From: Pyrodictium abyssi
GTDB lineage: Archaea > Thermoproteota > Thermoprotei_A > Sulfolobales > Pyrodictiaceae
Assembly: GCF_036323395.1 (NCBI RefSeq)
Contig: NZ_AP028907.1
Location: 1,920,001 to 1,952,000 of the forward strand
DNA: 32,000 bases
Reading direction: 5' to 3'
Both the position numbers and the translations under genes were made by a program. This document shows, piece by piece, positions 4,208 through 27,398 of the stretch. Position 1 is the first letter of the stretch, and every line of letters starts with the position of its first letter. A model generated the notes under the pieces. It was not told where the DNA came from and searched no databases. It worked only from the letters and a program-made list of their open reading frames with translations.

Positions 4208-4279
4208 AAACTCACTAGCAGAAACCAGGAGAGCAACGACCCACAGGAGCAGGGGTATATAGAGGATAGGAGACCGGAG

Positions 4280-4405
4280 TGGTGGGCCCGCCGGGATTTG
4301 AACCCGGGACCACGGGGTCCCGAGTCGGGCACACCCCCGCCTTCACGGCGCGGGTCCGGCGGGGCTGTGTGTACCCCGCATCCTACCAAGCTAGACGACG
4401 GGCCC
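4280..4405 (-). tRNA. tRNA-Pro: tRNA-Pro(CGG) with 49-nt intron and encoded CCA
   Basis: The reverse complement reads GGGCCCG TC GTCT AGCTTGGTA GGAT G CGGGG [49-nt insert, + coords 4325-4373] CTCGGGA CCCCG TGGTC CCGGG TTCAAAT CCCGG CGGGCCC A CCA. This gives a full cloverleaf with the anticodon loop C-U-CGG-G-A. Confidence 0.85.
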
Positions 4406-4635
4406 ACCCACGCGCCTCCAGGCTCCACTTTGGGTTCCCGGAAAGGTAGTGGCCAGTGTTATTTGCGTTTCTGGAGCTCCGCTCAATTATTTAACGTGTG
4501 TTGTTTACTAGAGTGTGTAGTGGTTAGCGTGTCGGTAGACAACGAAAGTATTTGTGGCCTTGGCTCTGGCTATGAGAGAGGCTGTACGACGGGTTTTTAT
4601 GGGTAAATAATGTTATAGATAACCTGGGAGAAGTA

Positions 4636-5750: not shown

Positions 5751-5805
5751 TGGAGCCGCCGCCGGGATTCGAACCCGGGACCTCCGCCTTACCAGGGCGG
5801 CGTCC
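5751..5805 (-). tRNA. 3' fragment of tRNA-Thr(GGU), attachment-site copy, not a complete gene
   Basis: The reverse complement reads G CCGCC CTGGTAA GGCGG AGGTC CCGGG TTCGAAT CCCGG CGGCGGC T CCA, covering the anticodon arm through CCA. The expected 5' acceptor strand GCCGCCG and a D arm are absent upstream, where the sequence is the integrase 3' end. Confidence 0.7.
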
Positions 5806-5814
5806 CGTGGGGTG

Positions 5815-6889: not shown

Positions 6890-7135
6890 CTATGTTCTTG
6901 CCCTAAGCATAAGCTTCGATAAAACCAGAACTATTACCGCGAGCACTACGCCGCTTAGCGATAACATATCGCATGCTGCGCCAAGCAGGAGTAAGAACAT
7001 ACCATCCCTAATGGCTCTATAAGCTCGTTGTTTCGCCTCCTCAAGGTCTAGGTAGTCATCGAGGCTTTTTGCAAGCAGCTCTGTACCCTCTAGTAGGAAA
7101 ACCATGATGCCTATTGCTTCAAGCCCCTTACCCAC
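6890..7135 (-). CDS. hypothetical small membrane protein (possibly N-terminally decayed)
   Basis: 81-aa ORF with a GTG start. The same frame stays open 49 codons further upstream, to 7282, and encodes a hydrophobic stretch (YAILVGVIVAIIVYY). That extension contains no ATG, GTG or TTG. Confidence 0.3.
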   Translation of the reverse strand: MGKGLEAIGIMVFLLEGTELLAKSLDDYLDLEEAKQRAYRAIRDGMFLLLLGAACDMLSLSGVVLAVIVLVLSKLMLRART

Positions 7136-7301
7136 TGCATCAGGGAGGAAAAAGCTCCTGTAGTAGACGATTATCGCAACTATGACTCCTACTAGGATTG
7201 CATAAGAATACCTTGCTATGCGTGATAGAGGGTCAGCTAACAGTGAGAGTATCTCGCTTAAGCCTAGACCACCCCGTTCTATCTATGCACACTAGTCGAT
7301 C

Positions 7302-7625
7302 CTACACGTCTGCGAATCTTTCCTCTATTAGCCTCTCTTGTTCGTCTATACATCTTTTTACAGCATCTAGTACTCTGGTAAGGCATTGCTTAAGTTCGCT
7401 TGGTAGTTCCCCTTCTACCTCTAGCTTGTAGGTACAAGACTCTAGGTTGTCGTATTTTAGGGCACATGCATAGAACTCTGAAAGCTTTTGGAACCAATTA
7501 CTGCTCAGCACGTCTTTGAAGACCTTATAGCACTCTGGACAGCATTGTAGCAGACTAGTTTTAGATAGCGTCGACGAGATACATGAGCCTCGCGATGACC
7601 TTTTGAGCATATCTTGCAGATCCAT
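7302..7625 (-). CDS. hypothetical Cys-rich protein
   Basis: 107-aa ORF in the lower-G+C island with plausible composition and several Cys (CCPECYK, YACALK, ESCTYK, KQCL, KRCI). I recognise no family. Confidence 0.4.
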   Translation of the reverse strand: MDLQDMLKRSSRGSCISSTLSKTSLLQCCPECYKVFKDVLSSNWFQKLSEFYACALKYDNLESCTYKLEVEGELPSELKQCLTRVLDAVKRCIDEQERLIEERFADV

Positions 7626-8903: not shown

Positions 8904-10784
8904 CTAGGTTATGATCAGCGGCTTTGCGCCCTCCTCGAGGACCTCGTCTAAGAGGCTCCTTGGGAAGGGTACTGGGGTGGCGGTGTAGTCCAGCTCTACC
9001 GGAGTCCCTGTGGGCTGTGTGGCCTCTATGCTTACTGTTAGCTGGCTCCCGGGCTCGACGGTGTAGAGGACCAGGCCCGGGTCCTCTAGCACCAGTGTCT
9101 CGTTGTACGTTATGGTGAATGTGGAGTAGTAGGGGTCGCCCCACATGTAGTCTACTATAGTTCTCGACGCGGTGTAGGTCTTCCTGTCGAGTACTATCCT
9201 CTCCACGGGCCGGGCCTCGGCTACAGGCTCTAGCCGGAGGGTTGTCGGCGCCAGCAGCTCGTTCGCGTTAGCGGTCTCGGTGTGGCTGTGGGCTATGTAG
9301 AGTAGGAGTTCGGTGCCGACCATGGCGTAGCTCCCGACTCCAGGCACATAATGGAAACGGCTTACCCATGCGCCGGCCCATGCCGCGTAGCTCACCTCGA
9401 GCACTGCTACAGCCGCGGTGGCGGTGGGGCCCAACCGCTTCACCAGCTCCGGCCCTATAGTGATGGTCACTGCTACCGGGTGGTCTAGCCTGGCCACGTT
9501 CCGGCCCTCTATGCGTATTGTCTCTGTGTAGAGCGCCTCCTGGACCCGCGCCTGCCAGGAGGGGTCCACTTGGCTCGCCATGCCTCTGGCTACGACTAGT
9601 TTGCCAGGGTCGTAGGTATTGGGCGGGAGGAGGTGCAGCTTCACCGAGACGTGGGTGACCGGCAGGGCTAGGGTGCTAGTGTAAGTGCACGAGGTTATGA
9701 CGCCGCAGTAGTCCTGGGCACGCCACCCGGTGACGGTCTCGTTGACGGCTGCGCTGACGGGGTCCCGGGGCAGGAGTAGCAACGTTATGGTCTCGGATTT
9801 CGACTCCGTGGTTACCAGGAAGGGTATGTAGATGGCGCCTACTGCTCCGCCGGAGAGCCAGGAGGCACTATGGTCGTAGTCGTTGAATGGGATAGGGAAG
9901 CTTATCGAGGACATCCATCGCCAGTAGCGGCCCCTGTAGAGGGCGAAGATCTCGCTTGTCGTGTATAGTAGGCCCTCCTTGGTGAACCCTATCTTGGGCT
10001 TCCAGCGGTACTTTTCATAGATGTCTGCGCAGGCGTAGACCCTCGCCTCCCGGTGCTCCAGCCGCAGCAGGCCCCCTGCTATGGGCTCCAGGACGCGGCG
10101 GCGGACGTAGAGCTCGCCGCAGCCACAGCAGCCCAGATCCCGCTCGCTGCTCTCCACGCTGTCGCGGACCGGCAGCCCCGCTATCCTGTAGAGCTGCGCC
10201 TTCTCTGGATCGGTGTTGACGCCGGGCAGGGGGCCATCCCCAGCAGCTCTCGCAACATCCTCGACGCTGTCTACGGGCAGCAGTGGGCCCGCAAACCACA
10301 CCGGCTGCAGAACCGGGCCATACTGGACAAGCAGCACCTCCCGCACAGCCTCGCCTACCAGGCTCTCGGTGTCTACGTTCGCGGTATTGTTGGCGGTCTC
10401 CAGTGGTGCGCTCGCTACGCTAGCCATTGCTGCGACGGAGCTGGCTACGGGGTCGGCTGCCCCTACCCGTAGGTTCCCCCTCTTCGCTACGTAGATCTTG
10501 GACTGGTCGGCGGGCCAGGGTAGGGTCACGGTGGTAACGTTCACGGCTACGTGGGGGATGCCATTGGGATCAACTACTATGATGTCTGCTGGCTCGGGTA
10601 GGCTGATAACGTTACTTGATATGTTTGCGTGCTCGGCTATGAAGCGGGCGCGTTCATACAGTTGCTGCTGCTCGTGGATTGCTTGTGTGACAGTCCTGCC
10701 CATGTAAGCTATGTATACCGCTATGCTGGCTAATGCTAGGAGCATGATTAGCCCGGCATAAACCGTGCCTATGCCCCTCAGCAT
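8904..10784 (-). CDS. large secreted/pilin-like protein with class III-type signal peptide
   Basis: The track ORF extends to 10940, but ATG 10784 gives MLRGIGTVYAGLIMLLALASIAVYIAYMG, a basic-Gly start followed by a hydrophobic helix as in archaeal prepilins. It also avoids overlap with the divergent gene at 10850. The remaining ~600 aa or so are beta-rich and probably extracellular. Confidence 0.6.
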   Translation of the reverse strand: MLRGIGTVYAGLIMLLALASIAVYIAYMGRTVTQAIHEQQQLYERARFIAEHANISSNVISLPEPADIIVVDPNGIPHVAVNVTTVTLPWPADQSKIYVAKRGNLRVGAADPVASSVAAMASVASAPLETANNTANVDTESLVGEAVREVLLVQYGPVLQPVWFAGPLLPVDSVEDVARAAGDGPLPGVNTDPEKAQLYRIAGLPVRDSVESSERDLGCCGCGELYVRRRVLEPIAGGLLRLEHREARVYACADIYEKYRWKPKIGFTKEGLLYTTSEIFALYRGRYWRWMSSISFPIPFNDYDHSASWLSGGAVGAIYIPFLVTTESKSETITLLLLPRDPVSAAVNETVTGWRAQDYCGVITSCTYTSTLALPVTHVSVKLHLLPPNTYDPGKLVVARGMASQVDPSWQARVQEALYTETIRIEGRNVARLDHPVAVTITIGPELVKRLGPTATAAVAVLEVSYAAWAGAWVSRFHYVPGVGSYAMVGTELLLYIAHSHTETANANELLAPTTLRLEPVAEARPVERIVLDRKTYTASRTIVDYMWGDPYYSTFTITYNETLVLEDPGLVLYTVEPGSQLTVSIEATQPTGTPVELDYTATPVPFPRSLLDEVLEEGAKPLIIT

Positions 10785-10793
10785 GAGCCACCC

Positions 10794-10836
10794 CTTCTCC
10801 CGGCTTCTCCGGGTAGACTGGGGAGCCCGGGAGAAG
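10794..10836. promoter_or_regulatory. inverted repeat in the divergent pilus promoter region
   Basis: CTTCTCCCGG (10794-10803) and CCGGGAGAAG (10827-10836) are exact reverse complements. A near-copy CTTCTCCGGG sits at 10804-10813. A GGAGG Shine-Dalgarno sequence precedes ATG 10850. Confidence 0.45.
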
Positions 10837-10849
10837 GAGGCGCGACACC

Positions 10850-11170
10850 ATGCGCGCATTATCCGAGCTCTACGCGGCGATACTGCTCTTTGCGGCCAGT
10901 GTAGCCGTCGCTGGCATGCTCTACAGCTACGTGGAGGCACACATCCCTAGGCATGAGCCGCCGCGCCCCGTGCGCGTTCTCGAGCTCAACGAGACCCACG
11001 TAGTCTGCTACACACCGTTCACGGTGAACCTCACCTACTGGCAGACAGTGGGAAGCTTCAGCTGCTGGCTGGTGCCAAACATTTCTAGCAGCGCGCTGGA
11101 CCCGTGTCCCCCCGTCCTCGAGCCAGGCACCTACATCCTCGTGAGCCCTCCATGGCTCTGCAGCCCTTGA
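10850..11170 (+). CDS. small pilin-like protein (class III signal peptide)
   Basis: The N-terminus MRALSELYAAILLFAASVAVAGMLYSYV resembles an archaeal type IV prepilin. It is preceded by GGAGG and lies directly upstream of the pilus ATPase. Confidence 0.5.
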   Translation: MRALSELYAAILLFAASVAVAGMLYSYVEAHIPRHEPPRPVRVLELNETHVVCYTPFTVNLTYWQTVGSFSCWLVPNISSSALDPCPPVLEPGTYILVSPPWLCSP

Positions 11171-11184
11171 AGGAGGCGAGGGCG

Positions 11185-12798
11185 ATGAGCGAGGCGGAGG
11201 CCAGGGAGCTAGAACATGGAAAGGAGGACCTCCTGCTAAGCCTCCTCGAGGAGCCGGGAGCCCCGGAGCCAAGAGTCGGGGAGGTGTCAGGAGCTCCTGA
11301 GGCCCCCGAGGAGCCTGCTGGGGACGTGGAGGAGCTTACGAGTGTGGAACCCGAGGAGGTGCTCGAGGAGCCCGGTGAGGCTGGAGGGCAAGAAGCCGGG
11401 GAGAGCGCTAGCGGTACCAGCGGGATCCTTGAGTATAGCGTCGGAGTGCTTACCGTGGTAGTCTCTGAGGACCAGTACGAGGTTGTGGAGCCCCGGCTCG
11501 ACCCTGACGCGGAGAGAGCCCTCCACGCCGTCGTGGAGTACCTGGCGAAGCATGGGCTGGGCCCCGAGAAGGCGGGGGAGGCAGCGGAGAAGCTCGGGCT
11601 AGCCTCTCATGCTCAGCGGCAGCCCGAGGCCTTCCGCTACTACGTCGAGAAGGCCCTCAGCCCCTGGGGGTTCCTCTACCCCTTGATACTCGATCCCCAC
11701 ATCGAGGAGATAAGCGTCGTAGCAGGGAGGCCCGTGGACGTTATACACCGGAGGCTCCCCGGCCGGGAGTACATACCGACAAACATAGCCGCGCCGCCCG
11801 AGAGGGAGCTCCGAGAATACGTTCAGCGCCTCGCAGCCGCCGCGGGCACGGCTGTCTCCCCCGCGTTCCCGATAGCGGAGGCCGAGCTCGATGGCCACAG
11901 GGTCACTATCGTTCTCGGCAGCATAGCGAGCGCCACGAGCCTCTCAGTACGCAAGCACCCCGAGAAGCCGCTGGGGCTAGAGGACCTCATAGCAGACGGC
12001 ATGCTGAGCAGAGAGGCGGCGGAGTACCTGCTACTCGTGCTGCTGAGCCGCGGAATGGTGTTCATAGTGGGTCCGCAGGGCACCGGCAAGACCACGCTGC
12101 TCAACGCGCTGATGGAGAAGCTGCCCCAGGACTGGAAGCTGGTGGCGATAGAGGATGTACCTGAACTTAGGCCGAGGCACCCGCGCTTCATAAGCCTCCG
12201 CGTCAGGAGGGCGAGAAGCCTCGCTGCGAGTCGGCAGACCGAGGTGACGTACCAGGACCTGGTCCGTGTCGCTCTAAGGCTCCGGGGCCAGTTCACGGCG
12301 ATAACAGAGGCCCGTGGCGAGGAGATACTTGACCTCTTCGAGGTAGCAGCACTAGGCGAAGCCTCCGCCGCGACCTTCCACGCTAGAGACTGGAGGGAGC
12401 TGAAGCTCAGACTGCTGAAGCTAGGCGTTAGAGAAGACATGCTGGTGCTGCTCTGGTCTGTGGTGGTCCTCAGCAAGGTGAGGCTGAAGGACGGGAGAAC
12501 CGTCCGCAGAGTCGTGGCAATCTACGAGGTGGAGCCCGACGGCAGCGAACGGCTCCTCTTCCGCTACGACCCCGAGAAGGACGTGCTCGTGAAGGTGGCG
12601 GAGCCTCGCCGCATCACCTTCTCCCCGCTGAGCGAGTCAAGCGGGGATAGAAGTGGAGGAGGCCCGGGCACAGGTTCAGGCCCAGAGAGCCAGGAAGGTC
12701 ATAACGCTGTATCAGCTAGCCGTGACGGCAGCGTCGACGCTGCTGATACTGACGGGAATAGTGCCTTGGAGAGCGCTTCTGGGTCTAGCGGAACCTGA
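11185..12798 (+). CDS. type IV pilus assembly ATPase (PilB/FlaI/VirB11 superfamily)
   Basis: Walker A GPQGTGKTT (12070-12096), with VAIEDVPEL, AITEARGEE and ATFHARD motifs. An acidic low-complexity N-terminus precedes them. Start chosen at ATG 11185, which is preceded by AGGAGG; the track ORF starts at 11104. Confidence 0.85.
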   Translation: MSEAEARELEHGKEDLLLSLLEEPGAPEPRVGEVSGAPEAPEEPAGDVEELTSVEPEEVLEEPGEAGGQEAGESASGTSGILEYSVGVLTVVVSEDQYEVVEPRLDPDAERALHAVVEYLAKHGLGPEKAGEAAEKLGLASHAQRQPEAFRYYVEKALSPWGFLYPLILDPHIEEISVVAGRPVDVIHRRLPGREYIPTNIAAPPERELREYVQRLAAAAGTAVSPAFPIAEAELDGHRVTIVLGSIASATSLSVRKHPEKPLGLEDLIADGMLSREAAEYLLLVLLSRGMVFIVGPQGTGKTTLLNALMEKLPQDWKLVAIEDVPELRPRHPRFISLRVRRARSLAASRQTEVTYQDLVRVALRLRGQFTAITEARGEEILDLFEVAALGEASAATFHARDWRELKLRLLKLGVREDMLVLLWSVVVLSKVRLKDGRTVRRVVAIYEVEPDGSERLLFRYDPEKDVLVKVAEPRRITFSPLSESSGDRSGGGPGTGSGPESQEGHNAVSASRDGSVDAADTDGNSALESASGSSGT

Positions 12799-14617
12799 GG
12801 TTCACGTTACACCCGCGTTGCTCGGCCTGGGCATCTTTCTATTCGCGCTGGTGGTCATGGATCTGGCGACCGGGCTGTTCTACCGTCTAGCGCTCTACCC
12901 GTCTAGGCGCCTAGTCCTAGCAGCCGCGCTCTCGATGATAGCACTAGGCGTGGTCTCGTCGACGCTGCAGCTCGAGAGGAGCCCGCTGCTAGCCGCCATC
13001 GGGGCAGCCCCCATAGCCCCCGGGGCCTGGCTGCTCTACAGGCTGAAGAAGAAGGCCGAGGAGAGGCCCGAGGAGCCCCGTGGCCTCCTCAGATACGTAG
13101 TCCCCGCGGTTCTAGGCATCACCCCGCTCGGGGAGAGGATTACCGCAAGACTAGGGATCCTCGAGGCCGCCGACCGGGCGGGGATAAGGTGGACCCGGCT
13201 CGAGGCTGCCGCGATAACTAGCCTCGTGCTCGTGGCCGGACTGGCGTCTACATGTATTATACTAGGTGTAGCGGCCTTAACGGGGAGTAGACTGCTCCTA
13301 GCGGTATCCCCGCTGCCGCTGCTGGTACTCCCACTTCTCAGGCTACACCTCGACGCTAAGGCAAAGGAGAGAGCGAGGATAGCGGAGGAGGAGCTGCCGT
13401 ACCTTAGCTTGTGGGCGTGGCTGCTCGAGCGCTCGGGTAGCGGCGGCCTCGAGGACGCGCTCGAGGAGGCACGTAGAAGCGGGCTGTTGCTGGCGCTGGG
13501 GGCTGACGCCGGTAAGAGCCTCGAGGAGCTGGCCCGGAGGCATCCCTCGAGGAGGCTGCGCAGGTTCTATGCATACTACCTTGCGATAAGGGATACTGGC
13601 GGTGATGTAGCTGCATTCTTGGCAGATATTCTACGTTCTGAGATCGATGAGCTAAGAGCCAGAGTTACTGCCTACGCGGAGAACGGTGTGGCACTGGGCA
13701 CCGGCTTGTTGGGCATGCTTGGCACGGCTCTCATATTCGTGCTGTTCAGCGCATTCCTGGGCGCTGGGGGCGCCGGTCTAGCAGCCATAGCCATTCTCCT
13801 AGCCGCTCCTATGGGCTACCTCGTGCTCTCGATGCAGCAGCCGAGGCTGCGCGAGCGCTACGAGGACGCTAAGGCGGCTGTGGCCGCAGTGGTGGCTGCC
13901 AGCGCTGCGGCGCTGCTGGGCTCGCTGCTTATGCTGCCAGCAATCATGGCTGTAGGCCTGGCTGCAACCGCCGGGCTAAGCGTCTACGGCGTAGCATTCA
14001 GGGCGCAGAAGCGCATAGTGAACAAAGAAGAACAGGAGTTGCTGCCACTCCTCAGAATGGTTATCGAGTACACTAGGAGCATGTCGGATAAGCCCATATC
14101 CCAGCTACTGGGGCAAGCAGCTGGTAGTGTCGAGGAGCCGCTAGCTGGCGTAGCGCGGGCCGCGGCGAAGACTGGAAACGTGGCAGCCCGGAGCTGGCTG
14201 GCCCGCTACACTCTCTACACAGTAGTCAAGCTGGTAGGAGGCCAAGGCGCGAGCGACCCCCTGGCGCTCGAGAGGCTCTACGACCTAGTCTACGCGCATG
14301 TTAACACGTACAAGGCCGCGTCTATGCGGCTGAGGATGCTTGGTGCCCTGGCAGTAGGCTTCCCGCCGGTAGTGGTCGCGGCCGCGTCTGGGCTCCAGAA
14401 GATAGTAGGAGGCACAGTGGCGCCGATGCTGCAGGCGCTGCCGGTATCGTTTACAGGAGGCATAGCAGAGGTCATAGCCTGGCTAGCTCTGCTAGGAGCC
14501 GGTGTAATGGGTTTCCTAGCAGCCAAGGCTGTAAGCCTGACTGTAAGGGACACGCTCTGGCCCCTGGCCGCTGTGCTAGCGACGCTGCTCTCCATCCTCG
14601 CCTTCGGGGCTTTTTAA
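12653..14617 (+). CDS. type IV pilus platform membrane protein (FlaJ/TadC/PilC-like, two T2SSF-like repeats)
   Basis: 654-aa polytopic protein. It has two soluble helical segments (LPYLSLWAWLLE...RRFYAYYLAIRDTGGDVAAFL and ELLPLLRMVIEYTRSM...), each followed by transmembrane clusters. It sits immediately after the ATPase gene. Confidence 0.75.
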   Translation: MEEARAQVQAQRARKVITLYQLAVTAASTLLILTGIVPWRALLGLAEPEVHVTPALLGLGIFLFALVVMDLATGLFYRLALYPSRRLVLAAALSMIALGVVSSTLQLERSPLLAAIGAAPIAPGAWLLYRLKKKAEERPEEPRGLLRYVVPAVLGITPLGERITARLGILEAADRAGIRWTRLEAAAITSLVLVAGLASTCIILGVAALTGSRLLLAVSPLPLLVLPLLRLHLDAKAKERARIAEEELPYLSLWAWLLERSGSGGLEDALEEARRSGLLLALGADAGKSLEELARRHPSRRLRRFYAYYLAIRDTGGDVAAFLADILRSEIDELRARVTAYAENGVALGTGLLGMLGTALIFVLFSAFLGAGGAGLAAIAILLAAPMGYLVLSMQQPRLRERYEDAKAAVAAVVAASAAALLGSLLMLPAIMAVGLAATAGLSVYGVAFRAQKRIVNKEEQELLPLLRMVIEYTRSMSDKPISQLLGQAAGSVEEPLAGVARAAAKTGNVAARSWLARYTLYTVVKLVGGQGASDPLALERLYDLVYAHVNTYKAASMRLRMLGALAVGFPPVVVAAASGLQKIVGGTVAPMLQALPVSFTGGIAEVIAWLALLGAGVMGFLAAKAVSLTVRDTLWPLAAVLATLLSILAFGAF

Positions 14618-14625
14618 TGGGGCAG

Positions 14626-14634
14626 TATTATAAG
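14626..14634 (+). promoter_or_regulatory. TATA-box-like element
   Basis: TATTATAAG lies about 30 nt upstream of GTG 14661, consistent with a leaderless or short-leader transcript. Confidence 0.35.
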
Positions 14635-14660
14635 CCATTCAAACCCGTTTTCAAATCCTC

Positions 14661-15590
14661 GTGGGTTATGTACGGAAAGCTCAACAGGTCATACCTCCTG
14701 TCTGGATGCATGGGCTGCCTACATTGGCTGCCAGCGTAACTAGGACCCGGCAGCGGTATGGCGCAGAGCTAGCGCTGGACCTGCTACTAGCCGAGGCTCT
14801 GGGCAAGGGCTACAGGGTAGACGAGGAGGCGGAGCAGTACCGCCGGCTCATAGTCGCTGGGCTGGAGAGGCTAGGGGTGAAGCGCTACAGGGAGGCAACC
14901 GAGCTAGCATACGCCACGGCTTGGCTCATAGACGGCGAGTGCCGGGTCGACGACGGGCGCGGAGCCGACCTACGCGCGCTCGCAGCCGCTGCAGTGTACT
15001 GGGCTTGGCTCGTAGAGCATTCACGGGGGCTCCTCGGCAGGCCCGTGGCCCAGAGGGCATGGGAGCTGGTGGGTAGCAGTAGGGCCAGTTTCTACAGGGC
15101 GATAAGGATATGGAGCGAGTGCTTGCTGGGGCTCGGCAGCCATCATGCACTGCTACGGGGAGAGGCTAGGAGCCTAGTGTTCTCGGGTGTCGCCGCTAGC
15201 TATCCCGGCTACTTCATAGCCGCCCTGAGGGGCTATACTCCCGTGGCGGCGGGCTTTCATAGGCTCCGGCTGGGGCGGCTGCGCCCTGTGGAGCTGCTCC
15301 TTCTCCCCCACGGGGATAACACGCGGAGGACGGGAGCCGTGAACGGCAGGATGACTGTCACGTTTGACCTGGAGAGGCTATACAGCCTATTGAGGATGAG
15401 CTTCGACTATCAGCCCTTCTCGGCCCAGGACTTTGCCCGTATCCTAGCGCTCCACTACCCTAGCGCTGTCCAGGTGCTGAAGAAGCTTGAGACGCTGGGC
15501 ATAGTGGAGCGTATAGGCGAGGGCGTCTGGCGGCTCCGGGAGAAACCCATACAGGAGCCTATGTATCCAGCCCATGGAGGCAGGCTTTAG
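14661..15590 (+). CDS. putative transcription regulator with C-terminal winged helix
   Basis: 309 aa. The C-terminal FSAQDFARILALHYPSAVQVLKKLETLGIVERIGEGVWRL is a typical wHTH. The central helical repeat (ADLRALAAAAVYWAWLVEH...RASFYRAIRIW) is faintly cyclin/TFB-like, which is inference only. Confidence 0.5.
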   Translation: MGYVRKAQQVIPPVWMHGLPTLAASVTRTRQRYGAELALDLLLAEALGKGYRVDEEAEQYRRLIVAGLERLGVKRYREATELAYATAWLIDGECRVDDGRGADLRALAAAAVYWAWLVEHSRGLLGRPVAQRAWELVGSSRASFYRAIRIWSECLLGLGSHHALLRGEARSLVFSGVAASYPGYFIAALRGYTPVAAGFHRLRLGRLRPVELLLLPHGDNTRRTGAVNGRMTVTFDLERLYSLLRMSFDYQPFSAQDFARILALHYPSAVQVLKKLETLGIVERIGEGVWRLREKPIQEPMYPAHGGRL

Positions 15591-15616
15591 AGCCAGCGTC
15601 ATCGGCTACGCGGTCC

Positions 15617-15624
15617 TATAAATG
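15617..15624 (+). promoter_or_regulatory. TATA-box-like element upstream of the pilin gene
   Basis: CCTATAAATG lies about 160 nt upstream of ATG 15782. A GGGGTGA Shine-Dalgarno sequence sits just before the ATG. Confidence 0.3.
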
Positions 15625-15781
15625 TTTTACCATCTTGCCGCTCAAGTAGATGCCCCATGGGCGCATCTCTCCTCCCCCGCGCCTCCTACATCCTCCGCCG
15701 CAGCTAGCCCACCCACTCCCCGCCGTTTCTCCCGCCACGAGGCTAGCAACGTGAAGAAGCCAGAAGGGGTGAGCAGAGGGT

Positions 15782-16186
15782 ATGCCCCGCAGACTCCGTG
15801 GCCTGAGCCCCCTCGTGGCATCGGCTATCCTCTTGGCGGCCGTGCTAGCCGTTGGCGCAGTCATATACAGCTATGTGCACACAAGCACAGCAGCGGTAGT
15901 GGAGAAGCCGCAGCTCATGATAACAGCGGACGCAGACTACGTGGGTTCGACGGCCTACGTGGAGATAAGCATAACGAATAGCGGTGGGGCAGCGGCCAAC
16001 ATAACAGACGTGACCATAGACGGGCAGAGCGTCAAGAGCCAGCTATTCAGCGGGAGCTACTACCTGCTGAAGCCCGGCAAGGAGCTACACAAGGTCGTCG
16101 AGCTATCAAACCTCCCCAGCGGCGAGCACATCATAATAGTGACGCTAGCCGACGGCACAGAGTTCAAGTCCAAGTTCACCAGCTAG
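15782..16186 (+). CDS. archaeal type IV pilin (class III signal peptide, DUF361-like)
   Basis: MPRRLRGLSPLVASAILLAAVLAVGAVIYSYV matches the canonical archaeal prepilin N-terminus (KG-[IL]SPV[IV]A...). The rest is a small beta-sandwich-like domain. An oligo-T run at 16197-16201 follows the stop. Confidence 0.75.
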   Translation: MPRRLRGLSPLVASAILLAAVLAVGAVIYSYVHTSTAAVVEKPQLMITADADYVGSTAYVEISITNSGGAAANITDVTIDGQSVKSQLFSGSYYLLKPGKELHKVVELSNLPSGEHIIIVTLADGTEFKSKFTS

Positions 16187-16553: not shown

Positions 16554-17081
16554 GTGCCCCGCCTAGTCTCGGTTTTTAGCATCCCGGACCTCGGCTGGCT
16601 GGAGGAGCCGATAGCGTACCGGTTCGGCGTGGCTATCCGCGTCCGCCACCTCCTGGGGGTGTTCGCCGGCGTCTTCGCTCTCGTGGCGGGCGCGCCGCTC
16701 GAGGCAGCCGCAGCGGTGGCTGGCGCCGGGTTGGTGCTGGGAGCGCTCCCCGTGAAGCCGCCGCTGGGCAAGATGCTTGCCCGCCGCGAGCCCCCGAGGG
16801 AGACTGTCTACTGGGCGCCTATGGGCAGCATACTGGTCTACGTGGTCGTCGAGGAGCCCGGGGAGCTAGTGGTGCTCGTAGACGGGAGGGAGCACGACAG
16901 GCTCCGCGCATCCCCCGGCGTAGCCCGGCTGGAGGTGGCCGGCCTAGAGCCGGGCGAGCACACCATACGCGTCGTGGCCGGCCGGGTTCTCCGGGAGCTG
17001 CGAGTCCTCTCGGGAGAGCCCCGTGCCCAGCCAAAAGAAGCAGGGGCGAGAACAGGGGCGGGACAAAGGAGGGAAGCCTAG
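16554..17081 (+). CDS. small membrane protein in the VirB3 position, with a C-terminal beta-rich domain
   Basis: GTG start 7 nt after the upstream stop. It has a hydrophobic hairpin HLLGVFAGVFALVAGAPLEAAAAVAGAGLVLGAL followed by a beta-strand-rich region (GEHTIRVV). The assignment is positional only. Confidence 0.4.
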   Translation: MPRLVSVFSIPDLGWLEEPIAYRFGVAIRVRHLLGVFAGVFALVAGAPLEAAAAVAGAGLVLGALPVKPPLGKMLARREPPRETVYWAPMGSILVYVVVEEPGELVVLVDGREHDRLRASPGVARLEVAGLEPGEHTIRVVAGRVLRELRVLSGEPRAQPKEAGARTGAGQRREA

Positions 17082-21427: not shown

Positions 21428-23752
21428 ATGGGGAGAGCTAGGGCCTCGAGGAGGCTCTGGAGGCTGGGTGCCGCTGGGCTGCTGCTGGCTGGCCTAGCGC
21501 TGCCGCTACTCGCCATAGCCGCTGGCGCCGTGGAGTACCACGACTCCGTGCTGGGGTATAGCGGGGAGGGGGAGCCTGTTGAGCCGCTCCAGAGGCTAGG
21601 CTACGCCTTCGCCACGATACTGGTCTTCATCGGCGGCATTGCCTACGCGCTGGGCCGCTCGGATATCGCGAAGAGCAGCTGGGCGTGGGCAGTAACGGTG
21701 GCAGTCATAGTGGCATGGGTTTCGAGCTATAGTAGCGGGCTGCCCGGCGCCGCCGGAGAGGCCATGGTGTTCTGTCCCCCGGGGCAGTTCTACAAGGACG
21801 TGCCCGCTACGGTTGTGGTGGCGAGGCCAGGCGCCGAGGTCAGTGCCACCATTGACTGGGGCGACGGGAGCACTAGCAGCTGTTCTGGCCAAGGCTACTG
21901 CGTGGCCAGCCACGCGTACAGCGGGGAAGGGCTCTACACGATACGGGTCTCCGGTACCGCTAGCGCCCAGTGCGGTGTCGAGGTAAGGAGCCTGGGGAGC
22001 CTGCTGGAGGAGGGGTTCTCGGGGCTAGAGGCGGACTGCGGCTGGAGCCCGACCTCGTGGCCGGGCTGCATCATGGTGAACGCCGCGAAGGCTGTTGGGA
22101 AGGCCTTCGCGCTGCTGAGCGACGCTGTGGTATGGTTCTTCGCCCACAGCGGCGCCGGCGGCGTCTTCGAGAAGGTCGGGCTGATGCTCGTCACCGTGCC
22201 TGAGTCGGCGCCGCCACTCCTCGACACCCATGTCTACGCGTTGTTCCTCCTAGGCTACGCTGTGGCGGGCCTCGCTCTCTGGAGAGCGTTCTGGGAGTTC
22301 GAGAAGGGGCTGTCATGGCTGGATGCTCTCCGGGACGTAGCGTTCGTGCTGCTGGCGCTCAGCCTCGCGCAGCCGGTGTACACGTGGGCCGCCAGGCTAG
22401 TCAATAGCATGAGCATAGCCATGGCGCAGCCGGGCGTGCTGATGGCGTGGATGGCTATGCTGCTGGCCGTCACGGCTCTCGCGGCTGCGCTCCCCGTGGG
22501 CGGGGCCGGGGGCCTAGCGGCTGCCGGGGCGCTGGGCTTCGCTGGCTTCATCCTAGTAGCGCTGCTGAAGTACCTGCTGCTGGAGGCCATGTACCTGCTG
22601 CTGCCCCTCGTGGCGGTGCTCTGGCTCTTCCCCGGCACAAGGAGCGTCGCCCGGAGCATGACAAACATAGTCGTGGCGCTCATGGCGTGGAACCTAGTCC
22701 TAGCCGCGATGGTAGGGCTCTCCGCCAGGGCCCTGGCAGAGCCGGCCAGCGCCTCGCCCCTAGAGGTCATAGGCTACGGGGTAGCTCTCCCCCTGGCAAT
22801 GCTCGCCACAGGGCCCATGATAGGAGGCCTATTCGGCGCCCCACTCCCCGGGGCCGGCTTCTTCGCCGGCATGTGGGGCCGCGCCGCCGGCTTCGTGGCG
22901 ACCAGGCTAGGAGTGGCGCCACCCCAGCCACGAGCAGCACTAATGGTGGCACCAGGAGCCGTGGTAGGCCACACCGAGTACCTCCGCCCACCGACGCCAG
23001 CGATGCCGGCGCCGGGCACAACAGTAGCAGCCGGCGGAGCCCCCATAGCCTACGGCACCGCGGGGCCACCATCGCCAGCTCCGGCAAGAACCGACTGGCT
23101 CCGGCCGGCAGCAGGCCCAGGCCAGGCATGGGCCGGGCCCGAGGCAGTGTCAGGCATGGTGAGGAGGGTAGAGGAGCTCGGTAAGGGGCATGTAGGGTAT
23201 GAGGTCTCAGGCAGGGTGCCCGGGAGCCTCGAGCGCCGCTTCGCCGAGGAGGCGGCCCGGGATGCCGGCGCAGCGCTCGAGAAGCCGGGGCCGCGCGTTG
23301 AGGAGGTGCCACCAGCGACTAGGAGGATAAAGCAAGCAGCCAAGGAGGCGGCTCTTGGGCCTGTAAAGGCCGCAGCCAGGCCCCTGGCAAGAGAGTACAG
23401 GGCGATTAAGCAAGCAGTATCAGAGGTCGAGGGAGGCCGGGCAGCCAAGGCCGCCGCGCTAGGCGGCGCCGTCGCCGCCCGCCTCCACGCCTACATGTCC
23501 AATAGAGCAAGGCAGTTCATACGCGAGTTCTCAAGAGCGTTTGAGGCCCAGACCGGCATCATGGTGCCGACAAAACTCAAGCAGCTACAGTCCATCGAGT
23601 GGCAGCGCATCGAGGAGAGGATACGCACCGGAGCAGAAGCAGGCGCCATAGTCGGGCAAACTATGTACATGCGGATAAAGAAGCCCTTTGAGCGTTCGGA
23701 GCAGATAGTTAAGGCCTCTAGTGGGCGCAGCAGTGTCTACATGTACGGCTAA
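21428..23752 (+). CDS. polytopic membrane protein with PKD-like ectodomain (VirB6/TrbL/CedA-like candidate)
   Basis: 774 aa. It has a signal/TM segment and a PKD-type motif (IDWGDGSTSS...ASHAYSGEGLYTIRVSG). At least 8 hydrophobic helices follow, then a Pro/Ala-rich segment and a charged C-terminal tail. The VirB6-like call rests on topology and context only. Confidence 0.55.
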   Translation: MGRARASRRLWRLGAAGLLLAGLALPLLAIAAGAVEYHDSVLGYSGEGEPVEPLQRLGYAFATILVFIGGIAYALGRSDIAKSSWAWAVTVAVIVAWVSSYSSGLPGAAGEAMVFCPPGQFYKDVPATVVVARPGAEVSATIDWGDGSTSSCSGQGYCVASHAYSGEGLYTIRVSGTASAQCGVEVRSLGSLLEEGFSGLEADCGWSPTSWPGCIMVNAAKAVGKAFALLSDAVVWFFAHSGAGGVFEKVGLMLVTVPESAPPLLDTHVYALFLLGYAVAGLALWRAFWEFEKGLSWLDALRDVAFVLLALSLAQPVYTWAARLVNSMSIAMAQPGVLMAWMAMLLAVTALAAALPVGGAGGLAAAGALGFAGFILVALLKYLLLEAMYLLLPLVAVLWLFPGTRSVARSMTNIVVALMAWNLVLAAMVGLSARALAEPASASPLEVIGYGVALPLAMLATGPMIGGLFGAPLPGAGFFAGMWGRAAGFVATRLGVAPPQPRAALMVAPGAVVGHTEYLRPPTPAMPAPGTTVAAGGAPIAYGTAGPPSPAPARTDWLRPAAGPGQAWAGPEAVSGMVRRVEELGKGHVGYEVSGRVPGSLERRFAEEAARDAGAALEKPGPRVEEVPPATRRIKQAAKEAALGPVKAAARPLAREYRAIKQAVSEVEGGRAAKAAALGGAVAARLHAYMSNRARQFIREFSRAFEAQTGIMVPTKLKQLQSIEWQRIEERIRTGAEAGAIVGQTMYMRIKKPFERSEQIVKASSGRSSVYMYG

Positions 23753-25363: not shown

Positions 25364-26383
25364 ATGTGGCATAGTATAGGTGAGTTCGTCGAGCACGTCC
25401 TCGAAAGAGGTGCAAGGAAAGTCACTTGCTGGAAGAAGGGATCCGAGGGGTGCCGTGTCGCAAAGGTTAGCGTCGAGCCAAGTCTAGTAGGTGAACGGGT
25501 CTACGTATGGACTGAGAGCGAGGTAGAGGAGCTCCAGCGGAGGATTAAGAGCCTAGACTCTATGCGCCGGTTCTTCATATCGCTGATGAATACCGAGAAG
25601 GGGCGGAAAATGTTCACCATAGTCAGCGAGACGTGGAACCCCGTCACGGGGTGTGACCACAACTGTATCTACTGCTGGGCACGGCAGCTAGCGCTCACGA
25701 AGCTACGACGCGCCCCCCGCTACAGAGAGGGCTTCAGGCCCCGGCTCAACCCCGAGGAGTTCAGGAAGCGGTTCAAAGGCGGCGTAGTCTTCGTAAGCGA
25801 TATGGGCGATCTATGGGGCGAGTGGGTCCCTGATGACTGGATCCGTCGTGTACTAAACCATATAAAGAGATTCCCTAATACATGGTTCCTCTTCCTGACC
25901 AAGAACCCGCAGCGCTACCACGACTTCCTGGACGAGATCCCGCCTAACGCGATACTAGGCGCCACTATCGAGACTAACCGGGACAGCTACTTCCAGGAAG
26001 GCCACAAGCCAAGGATGTCCTCGGCTCCACTGCCTAGCCGCCGCTACAGGGCTATGAAAGAGCTAGACTGGCCTCTCAAGTTCATCTCTATAGAGCCGAT
26101 CCTAGACTTTGACCTGGACGTGTTCACCAGGTGGATCGAGGAGATAAACCCGTTCATGGTCTACATAGGCTACGACAACTACAGCCACAGGCTCCCAGAA
26201 CCCCCGCTAGCTAAGACACGAGAACTTATAAAGCGGCTAGAAGACTTCACACTCGTTATACGGAAAACGATTCGCCCAGCATGGAACGAGACACTCAACA
26301 AGTACACAAGCGGGGTGAAAGAAACTGGGCAAGCAAGGGAGTCAAAGAAAACAGCAGAGGCAGAACAAGCAGCAGCCGTATGA
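25364..26383 (+). CDS. DUF5131 / phage Gp37-Gp68 family protein (three-Cys, radical-SAM-like motif)
   Basis: ETWNPVTGCDHNCIYCWA (CxxxCxxC at 25652-25675), VFVSDMGDLWGEWVPDDWIRRVL and WFLFLTKNPQRY match the PF07505 consensus as I recall it. The conserved domain begins near ATG 25610, so the 82-codon N-terminal extension is uncertain. Confidence 0.7.
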   Translation: MWHSIGEFVEHVLERGARKVTCWKKGSEGCRVAKVSVEPSLVGERVYVWTESEVEELQRRIKSLDSMRRFFISLMNTEKGRKMFTIVSETWNPVTGCDHNCIYCWARQLALTKLRRAPRYREGFRPRLNPEEFRKRFKGGVVFVSDMGDLWGEWVPDDWIRRVLNHIKRFPNTWFLFLTKNPQRYHDFLDEIPPNAILGATIETNRDSYFQEGHKPRMSSAPLPSRRYRAMKELDWPLKFISIEPILDFDLDVFTRWIEEINPFMVYIGYDNYSHRLPEPPLAKTRELIKRLEDFTLVIRKTIRPAWNETLNKYTSGVKETGQARESKKTAEAEQAAAV

Positions 26384-26408
26384 GAGGTTTACACACTACC
26401 TAGGTGTA

Positions 26409-27398
26409 ATGCACAAAAAGGCGCTAGAACTTATGGACAGCCTTCCTGAGAACCAGAAGAACCAGGTCCAAGTCTTCTTTGACAAATACTATCCTACAAA
26501 GGAGCAACACTATTGGAGCGTCACAAAGCTCTTTGCTCACGCCATGTATATACCTATGTTTCTGCAAATAGGGCTCCATAATGTTGCTAAGGGCAAGTTC
26601 TCAAAGCTAGTATACATAGATACGCATTCCGGTCCAGGGCTAGCTAAGATAGGGGGCGATGAACGAGACATAGTCCTAGGGTCAGCTCTCCTAGCTCTAC
26701 ACTGGCCCCGTGTAGTCGCGAGCCAGGTGCCTCAGTTCAAGAACATAGCTAGGGGATTTGACGAACTCCACTTTATTGAGCTAAGCTGGCGCAATACGAA
26801 CATACTGCGTAAGTTCGTTAACAGCTTTACACATGTAAAGGTATATACTGACGACGCTAATCGGAGTCTACCTCGCATACCCGTGGATGAAAGAGCATTG
26901 GTGTATCTCTTTGTCGACCCGTATGGCGAGCTTGATTCGCAACTTAGTTACGACGCGCTAAGCAGCTTCGTTGCCCGCCATAGGGCCGACATAATGATGA
27001 GCGTGTTTGCCTCTCATCTTGCCCGCGGATTCTCCAGCATATCAAGGATAGACCTGCTAAAGGAAAGAGTTGAGCGTATCTTTGGGCCAGGGTTCTGTAC
27101 AAGTACGTGCCCTGGGGCACAGCTTCTTTGCAGTATTGGCGCAGCTACACGCGATGCCGTGCTTGAAGCCTTCAAATGCTTGCTAAGGAAGCTGGGTTAT
27201 CAGAAGGTAGTTGACATTCCGGTCCGCTTTGAGAAGGGCATTCTCTACTACATGGTATTAGCTACAAAAGGGTCTGGAGGCTGGATAGACGGCTACATAG
27301 ATTACATTAGTAACAAAGCGCCAAAAGACTATGAGACGCTGAAAAAGCTCTGGCTACGTGCAACCGGTAGACTTGTTGGCCTCGATAACTTCTTCTAG
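26409..27398 (+). CDS. TcmP-like (three-Cys-motif partner) protein, methyltransferase-like fold candidate
   Basis: 329 aa, immediately downstream of DUF5131, which is the arrangement that defines TcmP. YIDTHSGPG and FVDPYGE resemble the RlmJ-type ETHAGAG / DPPY motifs, from memory. Confidence 0.5.
   Translation: MHKKALELMDSLPENQKNQVQVFFDKYYPTKEQHYWSVTKLFAHAMYIPMFLQIGLHNVAKGKFSKLVYIDTHSGPGLAKIGGDERDIVLGSALLALHWPRVVASQVPQFKNIARGFDELHFIELSWRNTNILRKFVNSFTHVKVYTDDANRSLPRIPVDERALVYLFVDPYGELDSQLSYDALSSFVARHRADIMMSVFASHLARGFSSISRIDLLKERVERIFGPGFCTSTCPGAQLLCSIGAATRDAVLEAFKCLLRKLGYQKVVDIPVRFEKGILYYMVLATKGSGGWIDGYIDYISNKAPKDYETLKKLWLRATGRLVGLDNFF

Follow-up and report, generated by a model that had tools for sequence, protein, structure and literature searches.

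Introduction

The conserved components of integrative and conjugative elements (ICEs) of Thaumarchaeota include TadC, ATPases of the FlaI/PilT type, pilins, and a prepilin peptidase (Krupovic et al., 2019, PMC6563490). In bacteria, the type IV pilus (T4P) of IncI plasmids aids mating in liquid, and in the archaeal plasmids of the pNOB8 family and pT33-3 the recognisable components of conjugation are VirB4- and VirD4-like only (PMC12857230). Here, we analyse a stretch of 32 kb from Pyrodictium abyssi (below, the window means this whole stretch), in which T4P genes stand next to genes of a type IV secretion system (T4SS) on an integrated element. We favour, with reasonable though limited confidence, the reading that these genes form a self-contained archaeal T4P module, a conserved part of the backbone of a P. 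abyssi ICE, and that the pilus serves donor–recipient contact. As the ATPase open reading frame (ORF) of the module is 100% identical to PABY_21270 of P. abyssi, the window is chromosomal DNA of this species.

P. abyssi is a cultivable hyperthermophile whose surface filaments are under study by cryo-electron microscopy. An apparently intact T4P set, a VirB2-like pilin, VirB4, and TraG side by side provide a concrete test system, which could tell whether archaea conjugate by means of a pilus dedicated to mating and which filament does what, and also whether a modular pilin-adhesin sets partner specificity.

Results

Pilus ATPase and platform protein

The ORFs, N-termini, and ATPase motifs that had been named in a first-pass annotation of the window are all present where it had placed them (Table 1), and its assignment of the ATPase to the PilB/FlaI type, not to VirB11, holds. 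Walker A (GPQGTGKTT), the Asp box (AIEDVPEL), and the His box (ATFHA) are read directly in the sequence; together with Walker B, they are the motifs of the PilB/FlaI family of secretion ATPases. The protein matches Pfam T2SSE with E 4e-22 (78.7 bits, cutoff 24.9) and scores 166 bits with the NCBIfam model of BasE, 158 with FlaI, and 143 with the TadA-type model (E 1e-41 to 1e-48). The scores with VirB11 (TIGR02788, 83.8 bits) and TrbB (78.5 bits) are far below the respective cutoffs of 250 and 305. The best solved relatives are archaeal GspE (2OAP, 1e-33), FlaI (8e-27), and CpaF (3e-22); of the solved VirB11 proteins, that of Brucella reaches 2e-15 and HP0525, 2e-6. We reject a VirB11-type assignment, since both the model scores and the PDB ranking favour FlaI/BasE/TadA, and the platform and pilin genes adjoin. 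Pfam and NCBIfam scans of the window ORFs reveal neither a VirB11 homologue besides this ATPase nor a PilT-like retraction ATPase.

Table 1. Features of the P. abyssi window; a slash in an N-terminus marks the predicted processing site
Feature	Position	Strand	Basis or remark
Left attachment site, partial tRNA-Thr copy (anticodon GGU)	5751..5806	-	directly 3' of the integrase stop codon
Tyrosine integrase, archaeal type, 297 aa	5815..6708	-	Pfam Phage_integr_3, 30.3 bits (cutoff 27)
Large pilin-like protein, putative tip adhesin, 626 aa	8904..10784	-	N-terminus MLRG/IGTVYAGL
Imperfect palindrome in the divergent spacer of the 626-aa and 106-aa genes	10793..10837		CTTCTCCCGG ... CCGGGAGAAG
Small pilin-like protein, putative minor pilin, 106 aa	10850..11170	+	N-terminus MRA/LSELYAA; conserved cysteines
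T4P assembly ATPase, PilB/FlaI/TadA family, PABY_21270, 537 aa	11185..12798	+	ORF open from 11104
TadC/FlaJ/UpsF-type polytopic platform protein (ORF)	12653..14617	+	NCBIfam UpsF and BasF, colinear
Conserved 309-aa protein, putative module regulator	14661..15590	+	helical N-terminal domain and C-terminal winged helix-turn-helix
Major-pilin candidate, archaeal type IV pilin, 134 aa	15782..16186	+	N-terminus MPRRLRG/LSPLVASAILL
VirB2/TrbC-like T4SS pilin candidate, 107 aa	16223..16546	+	Sec signal and two hydrophobic helices
Small membrane protein in VirB3 position, 175 aa, overlaps the VirB4 start	16554..17081	+	position, hydrophobic N-terminus
VirB4/TrbE-type conjugation ATPase, 622 aa	17023..18891	+	Pfam AAA_10 above cutoff; NCBIfam VirB4 families, E 1e-28 and 2e-24
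Predicted surface protein, 485 aa	18885..20342	+	N-terminal signal or transmembrane segment, Thr-rich linker, Ig-like C-terminal domain, C-terminal anchor
Polytopic membrane protein, 774 aa, in the presumed position of a VirB6/CedA-type channel	21428..23752	+	sequence
TraG/VirD4-type coupling ATPase, 1168 aa	28453..31959	-	Pfam TrwB_AAD_bind and TraG-D_C above cutoffs

The platform protein aligns colinearly with UpsF (residues 187–642 onto model positions 30–480 of 484, E 3e-23) and, more weakly, with BasF (9e-13). Against Pfam T2SSF it yields a single repeat of 21.5 bits, below the cutoff of 25.2, and its halves match each other weakly (hhalign E 0.015), in the correct register. It had been annotated as a two-repeat FlaJ/TadC protein of 654 aa. 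The family stands; the description as two-repeat rests on the colinear UpsF match, not on two Pfam hits. Its start is probably not at 12653 but near 12851–12857 (about 586–590 aa), because the called start of a homologue aligns there and the long ORF overlaps the ATPase gene by 146 nt. The equivalog cutoffs of the Ups models are not reached (UpsA, 44.3 bits vs. 130, for the pilin; UpsF, 82.3 vs. 400, for the platform), hence the proteins are distant homologues and not Ups orthologues.

Pilins and their processing

Judging from the matches, the 134-aa protein is unambiguously an archaeal pilin. It contains the archaellin/pilin N-terminal domain (TIGR02537, 27.6 bits, cutoff 20), matches UpsA with E 2e-11, aligns over its full length with 8FK7, a solved archaeal filament subunit (E 0.002), and has homologues with 53–69% identity in L002, L004, and L006 (loci used for comparison are cited by such numbers). 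The 106-aa protein shows a weak N-terminal match to UpsA; its homologues lie directly upstream of the ATPase in six other loci, and its N-terminus resembles pilin-like ORFs of thaumarchaeal ICE loci (hhalign probability 91%, E 9e-7). In all members of the 106-aa family, an N-E-T sequon precedes His and Cys (INETHxxC); together with a conserved PPW.C at the C-terminus, this suggests a glycosylated, disulfide-stabilised head domain. Neither the 106-aa nor the 626-aa protein matches any family in the Pfam and NCBIfam scans.

The archaeal processing rule for class III signal peptides places Gly or Ala at position -1, a charged residue at -2, and the cleavage site before the H-domain (PMC4371748). 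The N-termini of the 134-aa, 106-aa, and 626-aa proteins all follow this published rule (PMC4371748), and the motifs are retained in homologues, those of the latter two in four to seven other loci. We also scanned all six frames of the 32 kb with a rule of our own ([KR][GA] within residues 1–16 and, after it, a hydrophobic 20-mer with no charged residue). The scan recovers the same three proteins and two false positives, the VirB2-like protein's Sec signal and a transmembrane segment within the platform; thus, the three class III peptides proposed previously are retained. Likewise, as had been noted, the window contains no prepilin peptidase: the GxGDxK motif is absent from all six frames, and none of the scanned ORFs matches the A24 family. 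The set had been called complete; ATPase, platform, and pilin are indeed present, and with the peptidase absent from the window, the set would be complete only if the host supplies PibD.

The large chimeric pilin-like protein

About 140 aa of conserved stalk form the N-terminal part of the 626-aa protein; the C-terminal domain, of about 490 aa, is swappable. Residues 2–140 match about 15 cluster representatives of 288–474 aa, while residues 130–626 match about eight proteins of 615–663 aa with a different class III-type N-terminus, MRG/YGSLLGSAL. Among 14 representatives of the stalk family, N-terminal similarity is seen in 91 of 91 pairs (median identity 52%), and C-terminal similarity, in 3 of 91. 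One of the about eight C-terminal matches is a second P. abyssi protein, the stand-alone P0093, encoded outside the window (656 aa, with its own class III-type N-terminus), whose C-terminal domain shares 53% identity with that of the 626-aa protein. Two relatives (L089, L090) reside in housekeeping neighbourhoods with no pilus ATPase nearby. From these alignments, the 626-aa protein is a chimera of a pilin-like stalk and a cassette-like domain common to a host surface protein; a stalk with an exchangeable outer domain suggests the pattern of a specificity-determining adhesin.

The AlphaFold2 (AF2) model of the protein, of low confidence (pLDDT 52, pTM 0.50, 6-row alignment), begins with a long helix, and the rest is a beta-rich body. 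No Pfam match was obtained for the variable C-terminal domains in the large-pilin family. A shufflon was considered and rejected: there is no inverted-repeat array around 8.3–9.2 kb and no dedicated invertase beside the gene. The relatives in L089 and L090 adjoin a Glycos_transf_4 (AglH-like glycosyltransferase) gene and two small unknown ORFs.

The element and its boundaries

The attachment (att) site is a copy of the 3' half of tRNA-Thr(GGU), from the anticodon arm through CCA, with no 5' half present. It covers positions 10–63 of the Rfam tRNA model; its 25.1 bits fall short of the gathering score, which is expected when a copy is truncated. Homologues of the adjacent integrase are found at the same end of L009 and L004. 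The layout is what a distal att copy shows when an element has entered a tRNA gene, with element DNA on the integrase side and, as read from the sequence, host DNA below position 5751. No second att copy is present in the 32-kb window, in which the 35-nt core occurs once with up to three mismatches allowed. From the att position and the single core copy, the element would cover at least 5751–32000, with the pilus block, which stands between the integrase end and the VirB4/TraG genes, inside it.

The G+C content is 66% for the integrase, 62% for the T4P block, 64% for the T4SS block, and 66% for TraG, vs. 52% for the host flank; two internal cargo segments have 49% and 54%. The pilus genes thus have the composition of the element backbone and not of the lower-G+C cargo, and the earlier placement of the block inside a compositionally distinct element is supported.

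Two other features lie near these boundaries or in the cargo. The host flank contains, 1.3 kb from the att site, a full-length tRNA of about 130 nt with an apparent intron (4277–4406, minus strand; acceptor GGGCCCG...CGGGCCC-A-CCA, T-arm GGTTCAAATCC), which is missed by ARAGORN and at the Rfam gathering score. At these settings no tRNA is called anywhere in the window; both the att half-tRNA and the intron-containing tRNA were recognised by eye and at relaxed thresholds. A lower-G+C cargo segment (25364–27398, plus strand) encodes a DUF5131 protein (339 aa) followed by a TcmP "three-Cys-motif partner" (329 aa; TIGR04474, 63.7 bits vs. cutoff 53), a known mobile gene pair.

Adjacent conjugation genes

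The pilus block is located, as annotated before, directly upstream of T4SS-like genes: the VirB2-like gene begins 37 nt past the 134-aa pilin gene on the same strand, and VirB4 follows. In the VirB2-like family, Pfam TrbC is detected in three of four members (best E 6e-9), the window copy alone being undetected; sequence and profile searches of this protein against PDB yield spurious designed coiled coils only. The element would hence encode two different types of pilins.

VirB4 is 33–35% identical to its counterparts in Sulfolobus plasmids of the pNOB8/pING type over 95–99% of the length, and 32% identical to that of Thermococcus pT33-3. TraG is 40% identical to its homologue in L008. The window thus has both a VirB4-type and a VirD4/TraG-type ATPase, the pair expected of an ICE. 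Of the remaining proteins of this block, the 175-aa protein has homologues in L004 and L009 and no family match in Pfam and NCBIfam; the 774-aa protein has homologues in L009 and L091, and family scans gave no assignment; the 485-aa protein matches BiPBP_C weakly and has homologues after VirB4 in L004, L008, and L009. The last one also features a long Thr-rich tract, TTTTVNDTTTTTTTTTTVTRTKTRTRTVTTT, and is a second candidate cell-contact factor.

Distribution of the module and phylogeny of the ATPase

The family of window-type ATPases comprises about 20 sequences with 47–81% identity. The recurring module has genes for the large and small pilins, the ATPase, the platform, and the 134-aa pilin, and usually for the 309-aa protein as well. 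In the survey of related elements, the T4P–T4SS linkage recurs in five others, of the Pyrodictiaceae/Desulfurococcales type (L004, L009, L008, L010, L092), where the module abuts or sits within T4SS genes and VirB4 identity ranges between 84% and 29%. Full synteny with the window is seen in L004 and L009, in the latter including the integrase. In L008, TraG and VirB4 enclose the module and an integrase is nearby; in L092, the module stands between the VirB4 cluster and TraG; L010 has the most distant VirB4 (29%). Copies without T4SS genes, in housekeeping neighbourhoods, are found in L002, L006, and probably L005. Since the chromosomal copies in L002 and L006 comprise the whole module without a T4SS, the module is presumably able to build a pilus alone.

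Outside this group, a related ATPase (E 1e-19 to 1e-49) is encoded upstream of VirB4 in eight thaumarchaeal VirB4 loci, in most of them no more than about 2 kb away, and three of the eight also have a TadC-like protein (about 1e-14); several contain 139-aa pilin-like ORFs with the N-terminus KA/ISEIYSAAL, similar to the 106-aa family. The VirB4 of the window is 26–29% identical to thaumarchaeal VirB4.

In the neighbour-joining ATPase tree with bootstrap, the window family forms a single clade (90%). The first three to branch off within it, L010, L092, and L008, are all element-borne (nested clades, 92% and 100%), and the window-type ATPases cluster with the chromosomal ones (95%). The thaumarchaeal VirB4-linked clade (100%) is just outside the family, its placement as the sister group being unsupported (44%). 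The tree points to exchange between elements and chromosomes and is compatible with an element-linked ancestor; generally, the comparative data suggest that pilus loci of elements and of chromosomes have exchanged genes.

Two side observations concern the compared loci. The divergent Pyrodictiaceae element L010 has a YdjM-family membrane protein (7079–7615, plus strand; Pfam E 3e-16) between the platform and pilin genes. Retrieval with the archaeal VirB4 profile also yielded bacterial VirB4 loci from Bacillota metagenome-assembled genomes and Sulfobacillus (L057, L063, L073, L075, L076, L080, L082, L084, L086, L087), with a T2SSE/TadA-like ATPase about 3 kb downstream that matches the window ATPase with E 1e-22 to 1e-28; hence, the ATPase–VirB4 pairing is not confined to archaea.

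The 309-aa gene and regulatory signals

The block contains a sixth conserved gene, absent from the first-pass annotation, which encodes the 309-aa protein and has homologues in L004, L009, L008, L006, L010, and L092. In four of the six members of the family, weak matches to HTH_Crp_2/MarR_2 are seen (best E 9e-5). The family travels with the pilus ATPase, has the core motif GRG.D.RALA.AA.YW...SSR.SFYRAI, and retains the winged helix in most members. The N-terminal core looks TFIIB/cyclin-like by eye, but no search or model supports this; profile searches gave the C-terminal winged helix-turn-helix only. The single-sequence model of the protein (pLDDT 35) is too poor for use.

A TATA-like TATTATAA is located about 30 nt upstream of the 309-aa gene. 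Palindromes related to that of the divergent spacer occur in the spacers of L004, L009, and L006, in element-borne and chromosomal versions alike; the palindrome could act as an operator, or it may represent two ribosome-binding sites that face each other. A bacterial promoter scan was discarded, the host being an archaeon.

Discussion

Role of the pilus module

From its gene context, the module most likely makes a pilus of the element's own for mating or aggregation, like that of IncI/R64, and this pilus probably grips partner cells during mating. We prefer contact in mating because of the deep linkage to the T4SS, the backbone G+C content, the separate VirB2-like pilin, the stand-alone copies, and the adhesin-like variable pilin. 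As the element has a VirB2-like pilin of its own, the T4P would be an extra filament, as in IncI plasmids.

The module might operate as follows. The host prepilin peptidase would cut the short leaders ending in R-G or R-A off the three pilin-like proteins. The FlaI/TadA-type ATPase, docked on the UpsF-like platform, would then polymerise the 134-aa major pilin, with the 106-aa protein as a minor or priming pilin and the 626-aa protein displaying its variable C-terminal binding domain; the 309-aa winged-helix protein may regulate the module. The pilus would join donor and recipient by aggregation or mating-pair formation, after which the machinery of the VirB2-like protein, VirB4, the polytopic protein, and TraG would transport DNA.

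Several observations weigh against such a role. The locus L091 has VirB4 and TraG with no T4P module visible within 13 kb. No Sulfolobus or Thermococcus plasmids are among the top organisms in the T4P ATPase matches listed, in which 35 minor groups are not itemised; since plasmids of the pNOB8 family and pT33-3, for which conjugation is proven by experiment, have a related VirB4 and no such ATPase, archaeal conjugation does not generally require a T4P. No fold is recognisable in the C-terminal domain of the 626-aa protein, whose AF2 model is poor (pLDDT 52). Finally, T-rich runs that resemble terminators come after the platform and pilin genes, hence co-transcription of the T4P with the T4SS genes is not assured.

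The main rival is a T4P–T4SS hybrid similar to that of PAPI-1, in which the module is an essential part of the DNA-transfer machine and is needed under all conditions, e.g., for breaching the S-layer, for pulling cells together by retraction, or in place of VirB11. The linkage to VirB4 is indeed tight and ancient, with the thaumarchaeal ATPases within about 2 kb and the module enclosed by TraG and VirB4 in L008 and L092; the loci that branch off first in the ATPase family (L010, L092, L008) are element-borne; there is no VirB11 homologue other than the pilus ATPase; and PAPI-1 sets a precedent (PMC12857230). Still, we regard an obligatory role as unlikely, given the whole chromosomal module copies without any T4SS genes, the element's own VirB2-like pilin, the lack of a PilT-like retraction ATPase in the window, and the pNOB8-type and pT33-3 plasmids, which conjugate with related VirB4/VirD4 and no such ATPase (PMC12857230). 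In its evolutionary form, equally doubtful in our view, the T4P might be the ancestral obligatory half of a hybrid conjugation machine common to elements of Thaumarchaeota and Pyrodictiaceae; the chromosomal loci of the clade would then be domesticated leftovers, and the C-terminus of the large pilin would set the recipient range.

Less likely still, the module could be cargo, i.e., an adhesion or biofilm pilus for the host or for element maintenance, with no role in DNA transfer and an incidental T4SS adjacency. This would fit the close chromosomal relatives in housekeeping neighbourhoods (L002, L006) with which the window-type ATPases group (bootstrap 95%), the C-terminal domain that the 626-aa protein shares with the stand-alone chromosomal surface protein P0093, also of P. 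abyssi, and the possible separate promoters and T-rich terminators. However, the T4SS linkage holds across phyla and in elements whose VirB4 proteins are only 29–46% identical, T4SS genes flank the module on both sides in L008 and L092, and its G+C content is that of the element backbone and not of the lower-G+C cargo segments. That the locus is an inactive remnant, an immobilised element whose pilus genes are no longer expressed or assembled, is very improbable: one att copy, a partial tRNA, is visible, the element is a mosaic with low-G+C insertions, and the 626-aa gene is recombinant; but all T4P and T4SS ORFs are intact and of full length compared to homologues, as are the catalytic motifs and the integrase, and near-syntenic copies with 66–84% protein identity exist in two other assemblies. 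Hence, we retain the mating-contact pilus as the preferred reading.

Comparison with known systems

Among archaeal plasmids, the Sulfolobus group (pNOB8, pING, pKEF9, and relatives) and Thermococcus pT33-3 share with the P. abyssi element a VirB4 of 32–35% identity, a TraG/VirD4-type ATPase, and the absence of a relaxase; elements of the pNOB8 type also integrate next to tRNA genes, as this one appears to do.

The Ups and Ced systems of Sulfolobales also combine the two functions: T4P with an ATPase, a platform, and two pilins aggregate the cells before DNA transfer by VirB2/VirB4/VirB6-related proteins (PMC9905601), and the P. abyssi pilin and platform have UpsA and UpsF as their best NCBIfam matches. 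However, the Ups and Ced genes lie unlinked on the chromosome, are induced by UV, and serve DNA import (PMC9905601), whereas in P. abyssi both modules are adjacent on a mobile element with a TraG/VirD4 coupling protein.

Similar to P. abyssi, the IncI1 plasmid R64, with its thin pilus (PilS/PilV), and Pseudomonas PAPI-1 encode a T4P on the element together with VirB4/VirD4-type proteins (PMC12857230). In R64, the pilus helps mating pairs to form in liquid, and the variable C-terminus of the pilin-adhesin sets recipient specificity (PMC12857230), which parallels the variable domain of the 626-aa protein; R64 has a shufflon, while P. abyssi has none, and the 626-aa protein varies between elements and not within one. 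As these systems are bacterial, the likeness is one of function only.

The closest counterparts are the thaumarchaeal ICEs (PMC6563490; Abby et al., 2018, PMC5797428). Both they and, apparently, the P. abyssi element are tRNA-integrated; both have VirB4, VirD4, VirB6/VirB2-like proteins, and no relaxase, and carry TadC, a FlaI-type ATPase, and pilin genes. The P. abyssi element differs in its host, a hyperthermophilic member of Pyrodictiaceae (Thermoproteota); in the lack, within the window, of a prepilin peptidase, a PilT-type ATPase, and a recognisable TFIIB or ParB gene; in its large chimeric pilin-adhesin; and in gene order, which is conserved among Pyrodictiaceae elements, while thaumarchaeal ICEs are reported to be non-syntenic. 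The novelty of an element-borne T4P implied in the first-pass annotation is therefore reduced, as thaumarchaeal ICEs of this kind had already been reported (PMC6563490). The T4P–T4SS pairing on archaeal elements is known, and the P. abyssi locus is a well-documented further example, not a new kind of system; new here are the Pyrodictiaceae lineage with its cultivable host, the conserved gene order, the chromosomal counterparts, and the chimeric pilin-adhesin.

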